A stretch of DNA of 26,866 nucleotides from Promethearchaeota archaeon. Its GTDB lineage: Archaea; Asgardarchaeota; Lokiarchaeia; Sigyniarchaeales; SOKP01. How positions within the stretch are numbered: the stretch's first letter is position 1; every line of letters begins with the position of its first letter. Location of the stretch: positions 1 to 26,866 of the forward strand of contig RDOA01000049.1 of NCBI GenBank assembly GCA_011364925.1, in the 5' to 3' direction. The notes beneath the pieces are model-generated. The model was not told where the DNA came from and did not search any database. It saw only the letters and a program-made list of their open reading frames with translations. The position numbers and the translations under genes are program-made. Shown here in pieces: positions 18,309 to 21,272 of the stretch.

Positions 18309-21272
18309 TTATTTGGGTCGATATTCATGGCGTTCGATTATTTCTAATTGCATATTTTTATTTAGCTTCGTAAAGTAAGCGTTATAACCAGAAACTCTAA
18401 CTAATAACCACCGATAATCCATCGGATTAGCCATAGCATCTCTTAACGTATCTGAGGATATTACATTAAACTGCCACTGCATTCCATTCAAATCAAAAAA
18501 GCTTTGAACATAACTCGTAAATAAATCCAAAGTTTTTTCGTGAGAGTCTCCCGGATGTGGTACTAATTTTACATTGTATGACGCATTATTAGCCATTTTC
18601 AAATAATCTAAAGCCGCAATGCTCTGAATACTTGGAAGTAATATATCAGTTGTGCCTGGAGCTGGAGTTAAACCAGGTGTTAATGCTTTTCCTTTTTTCC
18701 TGCCAGATGGTAAGGCTCCCGTAAGCATGCCAAACCCGGTGTGATAACTAATTGACCAATAACCAACAAGGTATTTCCCTCCTCTGTAATTTTCTGCAGA
18801 ATTGTAAATAGTATAGCAATAATCAACGATATACTGTGCCATCTCAACAGTACCCTCTTCACCAGATCCAAATTTTGGAACTTGTTCGATCTTATTCAAT
18901 ATATCTTCGTATCCTTCGAAATCGTTTTTGATTGCTTCAAAAAATGTCGCAAAATTGAACTCTTTTTTATTATAGACTAAATCCCTTATTACTAATAAGC
19001 TATCGACTACATCTGTAAGAGCTACAAGAGCAACACCAGAAGTGTTGTAAATAGCGCCACCTTTTATTAGATCTTTCCCTCTTTCTAAAGGGCCCTCGTA
19101 AAAACCAGACAACAAGGGAGTAGGATGAACGTATTCGTGCGCTTCACCAAGGAAATTATTGATCTCAATTGATTGCTCGGCTAAGTATTTTAGTTGAGTC
19201 TTATAAGCATCGAGAAAATCATTAAAGGTAGGGAAACTCGAACGAACATCTCCGGTTTCGATACCCATCATTTCGCCAGTTAAAGGAATAATACCGTTAT
19301 GTAATGCCATTTCTAGTGGAGCAACCAAATTTAAAAGCATACAATTTGTATGACCGTAATGTTTTCCTACAATCGTAGGTTCTACGCATCCAGTAGTTGC
19401 CCAATCTCTTGCATGTTCTAACGAAAATCCTTCGTGGACCAAGGCTTCAATCATTGTCTTATCGTTATGAATGCTTGGAGAAGCTCCCATGTTAAGGTTT
19501 ACTTCAGTAAGTCTTCTTAGATATTCTTTAGAGTTAATCCCAGAATAATATCGAGCATTCATATTTGGATCTTGAAACCCTAGCATTTCGTTCGCCTTTA
19601 AGATAATAAAGGACATATCATTCACGGCATTGCTGCCTTTCTCATCTACTCCCCCCACAGTTACAGTATCATCTGAAGAACTACCACCAAATAATTTCCA
19701 ACCTACATTCGGCATTAAAGGATCGTGATCATTAATACGAATAAACAAAGATCCAACTAATTCAATAGCTTTTTTAATTATTTTTTGTTTCTCTGCTTCA
19801 TCCTTTGCTTTTTCGATGTCTTTAAGGAAAAAAGGTTGTAGCATCTGATCTAGTCGTCCAATTGATAAAGCAGAATTTGCATTTTCGCAATGAAGACAGA
19901 CAAAACTCGTCCAAATCGATTGAATTGCTTCGTATAAAGTGTCCGCTGGTTTTGCTGGTACTTTAGCACATATTCTTGCAAGTTCTTTTAACTCTTCTAT
20001 TCTTTTTGCTTGTTCTGGATCGTTTAAATCCATAGATTCTGCGAGTCTAAGGGCTTCTTCACTTAAATGCATAGAATACTCTAACACGCCCTCCATTGCG
20101 GTTTGTACTGCCTTGTAGAAATTTTGTTTTTCAAGATTATCGGTTTCTTTTTCTAATTTCTTTGCTTTGTTTATTACGCTTTCTAAACCTTCGTTTAGCA
20201 CCATAGGGAATCCCGGTACGGTGTGGCTAATCGCATTGGTTTTCATCATGAAGTAGAAAACCCATCCTTCTTCTAACGCTTGACTTTTTGGATAGTTATT
20301 TTTTGTTCTACAATATTCCCTTACATTTCGTTCCATCCAGTAAGGAAATACTTCAAGACTTAACGTATCGGCATCTTTTTCTGAAATATCGTTGGGATTT
20401 AATTCCCGTTCAGCAATCGTTTTCAATTCAGGCCATATTGCTGTAGCTATTAATTCAGGATACATTGGAATACCAACTTCTTTCGAAGTTGTAGAACCTG
20501 CAATAAGGTGTTTATCGTGAATTATTGGTTTTTTGTTAGACATGATATATCTCACTGCTCCTGCTTGTCTTAACTCAGGATCGAAAGGATTTCCAGATTT
20601 GTCGAATTCAAAACCATTCTCCTTATGGTATTCCGTAACTAATTTTGCTCTCTCGACACATATTGCCGGTTTTAGGGCAAATCGTCTATTTTTTAAGTAT
20701 TTTAACCTAGGAAAGTCATTTATTGAATATTGAGCCAGAAAAGGATCTTTTAATACTTGAACATTGTCAATTTTACGGTTTAGACTCTCATTAACGAGTT
20801 TTCTATGATCAATATCTTTGATTGGATAAAGCAATCGATTTTCGGGTCCTTTATAATCTTTTATTTTAGCTCCCATTACGAGCGATGTGAGATAAGAGAA
20901 TTTAGTGAGATAACTCATATTTCCTACATAACCCATCTCATTTGTTAAGAGGTAATCCAGTGATTCTTCGGCACTTTTATTGTAAAGATTAGCCAAAGTG
21001 GCTTTATCTTTGTAATATATCGTAATATTCGGATTATCTATTTTACCATCAGCGACAGTCATTTTTCCATCTTTAAAAATTACGTAGACATTAAAAGCAT
21101 CATCCTTAGTCGTGAATTGATATTTAGCGTCAAAATAAAAACCTGTCTTTTCATTATATATTTCTCGTCGCATTTTCCTTCGTGTGTCGAAGATCATGGC
21201 GAGTAGGTTTAGCTGTTCTTTAAAATTCTCGAGCTCTTTTTCTACATCTAATACTTGCATAAGCATATTCAC
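18309..21272 (-). CDS. Glycyl radical enzyme (PFL-like, eliminase-type GCVEP) with N-terminal SCP2-like domain, 987 aa
   Basis: Gly loop LLVRVSGYNAYF (Gly962, codon 18387-18389), Cys loop WATTGCVEP (Cys629, codon 19386-19388), ICVERA, IGRLDQ, GALPSGR, QFNV; N-terminal ~135 aa SCP2-like. GTG start at 21272, alternative ATGs at 21266 and 21260. Confidence 0.95.
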   Translation of the reverse strand: MNMLMQVLDVEKELENFKEQLNLLAMIFDTRRKMRREIYNEKTGFYFDAKYQFTTKDDAFNVYVIFKDGKMTVADGKIDNPNITIYYKDKATLANLYNKSAEESLDYLLTNEMGYVGNMSYLTKFSYLTSLVMGAKIKDYKGPENRLLYPIKDIDHRKLVNESLNRKIDNVQVLKDPFLAQYSINDFPRLKYLKNRRFALKPAICVERAKLVTEYHKENGFEFDKSGNPFDPELRQAGAVRYIMSNKKPIIHDKHLIAGSTTSKEVGIPMYPELIATAIWPELKTIAERELNPNDISEKDADTLSLEVFPYWMERNVREYCRTKNNYPKSQALEEGWVFYFMMKTNAISHTVPGFPMVLNEGLESVINKAKKLEKETDNLEKQNFYKAVQTAMEGVLEYSMHLSEEALRLAESMDLNDPEQAKRIEELKELARICAKVPAKPADTLYEAIQSIWTSFVCLHCENANSALSIGRLDQMLQPFFLKDIEKAKDEAEKQKIIKKAIELVGSLFIRINDHDPLMPNVGWKLFGGSSSDDTVTVGGVDEKGSNAVNDMSFIILKANEMLGFQDPNMNARYYSGINSKEYLRRLTEVNLNMGASPSIHNDKTMIEALVHEGFSLEHARDWATTGCVEPTIVGKHYGHTNCMLLNLVAPLEMALHNGIIPLTGEMMGIETGDVRSSFPTFNDFLDAYKTQLKYLAEQSIEINNFLGEAHEYVHPTPLLSGFYEGPLERGKDLIKGGAIYNTSGVALVALTDVVDSLLVIRDLVYNKKEFNFATFFEAIKNDFEGYEDILNKIEQVPKFGSGEEGTVEMAQYIVDYCYTIYNSAENYRGGKYLVGYWSISYHTGFGMLTGALPSGRKKGKALTPGLTPAPGTTDILLPSIQSIAALDYLKMANNASYNVKLVPHPGDSHEKTLDLFTSYVQSFFDLNGMQWQFNVISSDTLRDAMANPMDYRWLLVRVSGYNAYFTKLNKNMQLEIIERHEYRPK

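Follow-up and report, generated by a model that had tools for sequence, protein, structure and literature searches.

The 26,866-nucleotide contig RDOA01000049.1 (positions 1 to 26,866 of the forward strand; assembly GCA_011364925.1) from Promethearchaeota archaeon of the lineage SOKP01, which in its whole length is referred to here as the window, encodes an oxygen-sensitive glycyl radical enzyme (GRE) that is a member of an uncharacterised eliminase-type clade. The defining partner of this clade is an SCP2-fold module, which in the window protein is fused to the N terminus of the catalytic core, so that a known kind of enzyme is combined with a new type of subunit. In the GRE superfamily an activating enzyme places a radical on a Gly, here Gly962, from which it is relayed to a Cys, here Cys629. 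The window protein displays the 10-stranded barrel, the Cys loop and the Gly loop of the superfamily and is adjoined by a cognate radical-SAM activase. Pfam assigns residues 190-848 to the PFL-like family (PF02901, E 1e-157) and residues 865-968 to Gly_radical (PF01228), a Foldseek search with the core returns the GRE barrel at an E of 1e-53, and the AlphaFold model of the full-length protein has a pTM of 0.91.

An initial annotation of the window, made from its sequence, had proposed an uncharacterised class of GRE, and this is borne out: the protein falls outside all characterised clades, its core is 23-31% identical to solved GREs, with Archaeoglobus PFL2 as the best sequence match (391 bits), and it lies below every NCBIfam equivalog cut-off. 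Bit scores against these cut-offs were 420/1100 for HypD, 413/1050 for CutC, 367/1000 for HpsG/HpfG, 384/1109 for PflD, 281/1100 for IAD, 194/1150 for HPAD and 116/994 for PFL. The Cys-Cys pair of pyruvate formate-lyase is absent, the window enzyme carrying a single Cys in the sequence GCVE.

The SCP2-fold module and its predicted docking on the core

The open reading frame has 987 codons. Since 15 of the 16 closest homologues start at the equivalent of Met5, however, the real start is probably at that residue (nucleotide 21260), which would give a protein of 983 residues. Translation places Cys629, Glu631 and Gly962 as expected from the initial annotation, and the N-terminal segments quoted there are found at residues 47-128. 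The features of the enzyme and its activase, all on the minus strand, are as follows.

18309..21272, minus strand: SCP2-fused GRE of 987 codons, probable start at 21260 (open reading frame, Pfam, AlphaFold)
20874..21257, minus strand: SCP2-fold module, residues 6-133, with five helices and a five-stranded sheet; two helices come first, then four strands, another two helices, the fifth strand and the final helix
20892..20924, minus strand: subfamily motif G117-N118-x-x-Y121-L-x-K124-F125-x-Y127 in the final SCP2 helix
20718..20873, minus strand: extended linker, residues 134-185, of a length that varies among fused members
18309..20717, minus strand: GRE catalytic barrel and glycyl-radical domain, residues 186-987 (Pfam, Foldseek)
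20259..20444, minus strand: main predicted docking surface on the core, residues 277-338, mapped from the interface predicted for locus L133
20223..20225, minus strand: His350, equivalent by alignment to propanediol dehydratase His166 and glycerol dehydratase His164
19377..19391, minus strand: Cys loop GCVEP with Cys629, the thiyl radical residue, and Glu631 of the eliminase CxE motif, from sequence and alignment
18384..18398, minus strand: Gly loop RVSGY with Gly962, the glycyl radical site (sequence, Pfam)
17378..18277, minus strand: GRE activating enzyme with radical SAM CxxxCxxC and ferredoxin insert (TIGR02494), 31 nucleotides downstream of the GRE

As modelled, the N-terminal domain has the SCP2 fold, because its AlphaFold structure matches SCP2 proteins in both Foldseek and an independent fold search. 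Excised residues 6-138 were predicted with a pLDDT of 90 and a pTM of 0.83. Among the top 46 Foldseek matches, 45 are SCP2-type domains, and the 30 matches at E ≤ 1e-3 all have the SCP2 fold (UbiJ-SCP2, AF1534, alkylsulfatase C-domains, and human and insect SCP2). The independent search against 48,161 chains ranked SCP2 proteins in all ten top places (Z 11.5-7.3, root-mean-square deviation 2.7-5.7 Å, 101-118 residues), the best match having a Z of 11.5 and a deviation of 2.8 Å over 107 residues, with Z at or below 3.4 from rank 21. Single-sequence searches of Pfam with the whole protein, and of NCBIfam and the PDB with the domain, did not report SCP2. When set directly against the Pfam SCP2 profile (PF02036), the excised module gave an E of 0.007 and 17.1 bits, under the gathering score of 21.3; some homologous modules clear this score (P0143, 27.2 bits), and 53 of 99 family modules match the profile at E ≤ 0.1. 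The SCP2 domain that the initial annotation had placed at residues ~20-133 is therefore upheld by the model, as is its end, while its start moves forward to a first helix beginning at about residue 6-9. Outside the family, the predicted structures closest to the module include PF21423 (AhtL-like_1st) domains on molybdopterin oxidoreductases (TM-score 0.78-0.81), possibly a parallel use of the module.

Structure prediction also supports binding of the module to the enzyme by way of the conserved helix that ends the module. For locus L133, co-prediction of the free module and the adjoining GRE reached an ipSAE of 0.89, whereas none of three controls exceeded 0.00, with at least 89% of contacts common to the runs and a partner pLDDT of at least 74. 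Among solved complexes, 58 of 80 reach the mark used for this docking score, as do 2 of 110 mismatched pairs, rates which apply only roughly to these alignments, and no solved GRE-SCP2 complex that the prediction could echo was found. On the module side, the predicted interface comprises the equivalents of E37, F47, E103-N111 and G117-Y127, which includes the conserved GNxxYLxKF helix, and on the core side the equivalents of residues 277-285, 305-338, 521-524 and 664-666. Within this surface, W280, P281, L283, F309, P310, W312, E319, R322 and E335 are nearly invariant in the clade, and many of the core interface positions are nearly invariant within the clade but variable outside it. The substrate channel of GREs is formed by the loop after strand β1, the cap helix and helix α8′, and is covered by the β subunit in benzylsuccinate synthase (BSS) and methylalkylsuccinate synthase (MASS) (PMC13450708). 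As the predicted contacts match these elements in their order along the chain, rather than by superposition, we infer that the docking face corresponds to the entrance of the channel.

A clade defined by its partner

The closest homologues of the window GRE carry the names Lokiarchaeota and Promethearchaeota, and the module is matched at E ≤ 1e-20 in about 49 of 138 genomes of the archaeal class of the window, mostly in frames of ~990 residues. The fusion of ~985 residues is conserved in Asgard archaea, Desulfobacterales, Syntrophomonadaceae, other Bacillota, Dehalococcoidia and Myxococcota, so that the similar fusions suspected in anaerobic bacteria by the initial annotation do exist. Many free proteins of ~150 residues were retrieved when the module alone served as the query; where the context was informative, these lay between a GRE and a GRE activase in four of four cases, and the GRE beside one of them is 41% identical to that of the window. 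To avoid circularity, 80 loci with split-form GREs were then collected by GRE sequence only: 73 contain an SCP2 gene or domain, and the remaining seven are cut off no more than 764 nucleotides from the GRE. The activase adjoins the GRE in 62 of 80 related loci; that of the window scores 290 bits against TIGR02494, for which the cut-off is 174.

The module thus occurs in three architectures, fused to the N terminus, fused to the C terminus (3 loci) or encoded separately between GRE and activase. GREs of all three kinds fall into a single clade, with an SH-like support of 100 and a stem of 0.52, when compared with 16 other GREs, among them a HypD, a PflD and AssA, the support being approximate as given by FastTree on 91 rows. 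Glycerol and propanediol dehydratases, CutC and Archaeoglobus PFL2 were not part of this outgroup and are placed outside the clade by their identity of at most 31%. Since it can also be encoded on its own or attached to the C terminus, the SCP2 module behaves as a subunit of the whole clade and not as a one-off fusion.

Grouping of the archaeal members as a single clade is rejected (AU test p 6e-68, LG+G4 model), and the window copy groups with those of Desulfobacterales, Syntrophomonas and Desulfatibacillum. As far as gene phylogeny can tell, this placement of an archaeal copy among bacterial ones implies that the gene has been transferred between Archaea and Bacteria.

Several members depart from the common arrangement. 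Desulfatibacillum alkenivorans DSM 16219 has two SCP2-fused GREs (L106 and L100), 62% and 47% identical to the window core, and its L032/L106 copy is without an adjoining activase. At L161:9810-11135 and L195:1701-2999 the module is fused behind a domain of ~310 residues and located between GRE and activase, and at L081:3504-5989 a split-form GRE is spread over two overlapping reading frames (369 and 481 residues), through either a frameshift or a natural split.

Active site, neighbouring genes and the proposed reaction

The CxE motif on the Cys loop, which is the defining motif of the GRE 1,2-eliminases (PMC13450708), is present in the window enzyme as C629-V-E631, and its Glu is kept in 132 of 133 clade members; GRE isomerases may share it, and it is not exclusive to eliminases. 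In the alignment with propanediol dehydratase, C438, E440 and H166 are retained as C629, E631 and H350, while H283, S284, Y341, D452 and Y694 are replaced by S467, A468, S531, N643 and W839, and I841 takes the position of V696 (S642 in glycerol dehydratase). The full substrate-binding set of the glycerol and propanediol dehydratases is consequently incomplete here, His350 and Glu631 being the only polar residues of it that are retained. In glycerol dehydratase, the Glu takes the proton from the C1 hydroxyl and the His protonates the departing C2 hydroxyl (PMC13450708). K344, H350, E463, N466, D515, W839 and H844 are constant throughout the clade.

In the subclade of the window, an aldehyde:ferredoxin oxidoreductase (AOR) lies within 8 kb of the GRE in 21 of 38 loci, where the gene density of this genome would lead one to expect ~4%. 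The adjoining AORs form about six groups that are only 27-43% identical to one another, and AOR has therefore been recruited repeatedly. Bacterial loci have acyl-CoA ligase, enoyl-CoA hydratase, acyl-CoA dehydrogenase and TetR regulators as neighbours. At locus L036 a long-chain acyl-CoA ligase, an enoyl-CoA hydratase, an AOR and an acyl-CoA dehydrogenase precede the GRE in one co-oriented run, and in Syntrophomonas (L033) a lysophospholipase-like hydrolase and a glycerol kinase are found near it. These neighbours in related loci, together with the active-site substitutions, lend indirect support that suggests a lipophilic substrate and an aldehyde product.

The reading that we favour, as a tentative one with somewhat less than even prospects, is that the enzyme dehydrates a lipid-tailed terminal vicinal diol to an aldehyde, while SCP2 holds or delivers the tail and AOR feeds the product into β-oxidation. 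The activase would install the radical on Gly962, to be relayed to Cys629, and the module would use its conserved final helix to dock on the core face with the proposed channel entrance, where it would hold the lipid tail or hand the lipid over to the core. The substrate would be a vicinal diol with a long hydrophobic tail, candidates being a 1-O-alkylglycerol, a monoacylglycerol or a long-chain 1,2-diol, and the Cys629 thiyl radical would take a hydrogen from its terminal CH2OH. Glu631 would deprotonate the C1 hydroxyl and His350 protonate the C2 hydroxyl, which would be lost as water to yield a long-chain aldehyde. AOR, encoded elsewhere in this genome and adjoining the GRE in relatives, could oxidise this aldehyde to an acid for CoA ligation and β-oxidation. 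In a bolder form, which we regard as unlikely, the clade would comprise the first GREs acting on membrane-lipid cores, SCP2 feeding alkylglycerols or archaeol to the radical site for dehydration or cleavage.

A number of observations weigh against dehydration of a lipid-tailed diol. AOR linkage drops to 1 of 37 among fused loci farther from the window copy and to 3 of 80 among split loci, many of the 21 AOR-bearing loci are close Asgard relatives, and the window itself has no AOR, its orthologue (71% identical to the L001 copy) being on contig C65 of the genome. Apart from the constant residues, the pocket is fixed inside the subclade of the window but differs between the fused and split branches, because of which the clade likely covers more than one substrate, and over eight pocket positions the side-chain volume changes little on balance, by about -55 cubic Å. 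Lys344, beside His350, could be the sign of an anionic substrate. In the independent search, Eis-type acetyltransferases also carry SCP2-like folds, which are not known to have a lipid role there. Several positions in the module interior are bulky aromatics (F47, Y51, F53, F66, Y87 and F125), and its most conserved residues sit on the predicted GRE-binding face, a distribution just as much to be expected of a gating or structural subunit as of a lipid carrier. These last points, along with the invariant Lys344 and the polar S531-D535 loop in the subclade of the window, would be accounted for if the module were a lid or stabilising subunit that, like BSS-β or MASS-β, gates the channel but carries no lipid, the enzyme dehydrating or cleaving a soluble or moderate-sized substrate to an aldehyde. 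Known GRE β subunits and loop extensions do cover the channel entrance (PMC13450708, PMC13232127). Such a role is nonetheless rather improbable in our estimation, as interior positions of the module are 95-100% hydrophobic across 99 sequences, its best fold matches bind lipids or isoprenoids, and fatty-acid catabolic genes recur beside the GRE in bacteria; the hydrophobic interior is necessary, but insufficient, for a lipid-binding cavity.

Other chemistries have been considered for the same site. Were an alkoxide rather than water to leave C2, dialkylglycerol ethers such as archaeol would be cleaved to an alcohol and an alkoxy-aldehyde; the role of His164 in glycerol dehydratase suggests that the group which leaves at His350 is an oxygen, the loss of the His283 and Tyr341 equivalents frees space near C2-C3, and the hosts are sediment heterotrophs and degraders of fatty acids or hydrocarbons. 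Split-gene operons add DUF6765 (35 of 80 loci), which at L151:7815-8873 has invariant H6, D35-D36, H79, H135, D139, H143 and H189, a His/Asp pattern that resembles the metal ligands of zinc phospholipase C and P1 nuclease, and a protein of ~820 residues (25 of 80) without a Pfam match and with a weak likeness to GXWXG/DUF4334. Both are absent from the SOKP01 genome, however, DUF6765 has no PDB match by sequence or profile and hence none to a solved phospholipase, and no characterised GRE cleaves such an ether, all six C-O eliminases being dehydratases. A two-tailed lipid would moreover have to pass a channel of 14-19 Å (PMC8473560), and ether cleavage is accordingly very doubtful in our view. 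Elimination of ammonia from sphingoid bases or other long-chain 2-amino-1-alcohols, giving a 3-hydroxy fatty aldehyde, is compatible with the CxE motif and with an aldehyde product and β-oxidation neighbours, and T642 and the W-S-I-S segment resemble the arrangement of choline lyase (T502). Yet His350 stands where choline lyase has Asp, the score against CutC is far from its cut-off, and among recurrent neighbours no ceramidase or sphingolipid gene was recognised, all of which renders this C-N chemistry highly improbable. Fumarate addition of the alkylsuccinate synthase kind, which the literature proposes for other Asgard GREs, might be read from the match to Archaeoglobus PFL2, a debated alkane-activating enzyme, and from members in Desulfatibacillum alkenivorans. 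It is hardly credible here, because the Cys loop of AssA (ACMSP, here GCVEP) and its Arg (here His641) are missing, the latter presumably binding fumarate as does BSS Arg508. In addition, AssA is 27% identical and lies outside the clade, and Fe-S small-subunit genes are absent from the recurrent neighbours.

Several other genes of the window were noted. A CrtI/carotenoid-isomerase-like FAD oxidoreductase overlapping an FNR-2Fe2S reductase (21441-24232, plus strand) is divergent from the GRE; the pair could act on isoprenoid double bonds, but adjoins the GRE in close archaeal relatives only (11 of 80 loci) and is not counted as part of the system. It is duplicated near AOR in some loci, and a paralogous pair is found on contig C62. 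A radical SAM/SPASM protein (16089-17240, minus strand) is co-oriented and follows the activase after 137 nucleotides, where relatives have AOR, and its homologue adjoins AOR in L010. An FAD_binding_4 oxidoreductase followed by DUF1848 (10672-13187, plus strand) recurs as a pair near the GRE in several Asgard loci, DUF1848 being also present in Desulfosudaceae (L030). Lastly, a CrtC/lipocalin-like protein (14018-16033, plus strand) and an NAD-dependent epimerase/3-beta-HSD-like protein (13243-13905, minus strand), divergent from an HTH_10 regulator, make up a second lipid-flavoured unit that is not kept beside the GRE in relatives.

Relation to known systems and implications

Among the closest counterparts are the B12-independent glycerol dehydratase (1r8w/1r9d) and propanediol dehydratase (5i2a/5i2g, 9rco), whose barrels resemble that of the window GRE with a TM-score of 0.92-0.94 by target, and which have in common with it the CxE loop, the leaving-group His and a ferredoxin-type activase; propanediol dehydratase V696 is also hydrophobic, as is the equivalent residue here. 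They are, however, only 27-31% identical, differ at His283, Tyr341, Asp452 and Tyr694, and lack the extra SCP2 module and the AOR neighbours of the window family, which in turn is without small-substrate pathway genes. Archaeoglobus fulgidus PFL2/PflD (2f3o) is likewise archaeal and shares with the clade the SH motif, small residues at the His/Tyr pocket positions and Met/Ile at 841, but at about 30% identity and 776 residues has no SCP2 in its chain, with Glu at Lys344 and Asp at Asn643 of the clade.

The combination of a GRE with an accessory subunit has precedents in the β, γ and δ subunits of BSS and MASS and in HPAD γ, and in BSS and MASS the β subunit covers the channel of an enzyme with hydrophobic substrates (PMC13450708). 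These small subunits are HiPIP-like or rubredoxin-like iron proteins, whereas the SCP2 module has no Cys cluster motif, and the catalytic motifs of the fumarate-adding enzymes are absent from the window GRE. SCP2 domains are attached to catalytic units in the alkylsulfatases SdsA1, Pisa1 and YjcS, MFE-2, UbiJ and the N-domain of cyclopropane fatty acid synthase; they have the same fold at 9-19% identity, but the GNxxYLxKFxY motif, the predicted GRE binder, is peculiar to the module subfamily of the window. A June 2026 review describes small subunits of GREs in HPAD, BSS and MASS only, all of them iron proteins, lists no archaeal PFL-like GRE with an established function and does not mention SCP2 or sterol carriers (PMC13450708). 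We found no paper that pairs a glycyl radical enzyme or pyruvate formate lyase with SCP2 or a sterol carrier, in a search that covered subscription journals thinly, and an Asgard lipid-transfer preprint reports one free SCP2 and mentions no GRE.

The SOKP01 genome encodes eight PFL-like GREs (contigs C93, C49, C27, C48, C97 and C16; L087-L094). The GRE of L087 clears the HypD cut-off (1300/1100), while L088, L089 and L093 match no characterised family. A Hermodarchaeota protein published as alkyl/benzylsuccinate synthase (h02m_117_k127_21078_1; PMC8163825) has stretches that are, by eye, nearly the same as the HypD of this genome (L087:1084-3459), and judged by these residues it looks like a hydroxyproline dehydratase, not a hydrocarbon activator. 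The published Hermodarchaeota 'Ass/Bss' proteins were also considered as members of the present family, but align only to about residue 790 and so appear distinct from the ~985-residue proteins. The window family cautions against labelling its Asgard members as alkane-activating enzymes or pyruvate formate-lyases.

An SCP2-fold subunit on the channel face, in a clade as widespread as this, would give GREs a new architecture, and homologues in the cultured Desulfatibacillum alkenivorans DSM 16219 and Acididesulfobacillus acetoxydans make it testable. If the substrate is indeed a lipid, radical eliminase chemistry would extend to amphiphiles, and the enzyme would be a candidate for anaerobic lipid recycling in sediments. 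Should membrane-lipid cores be the substrate, Asgard archaea and sediment bacteria would gain an oxygen-independent entry to ether-lipid breakdown.

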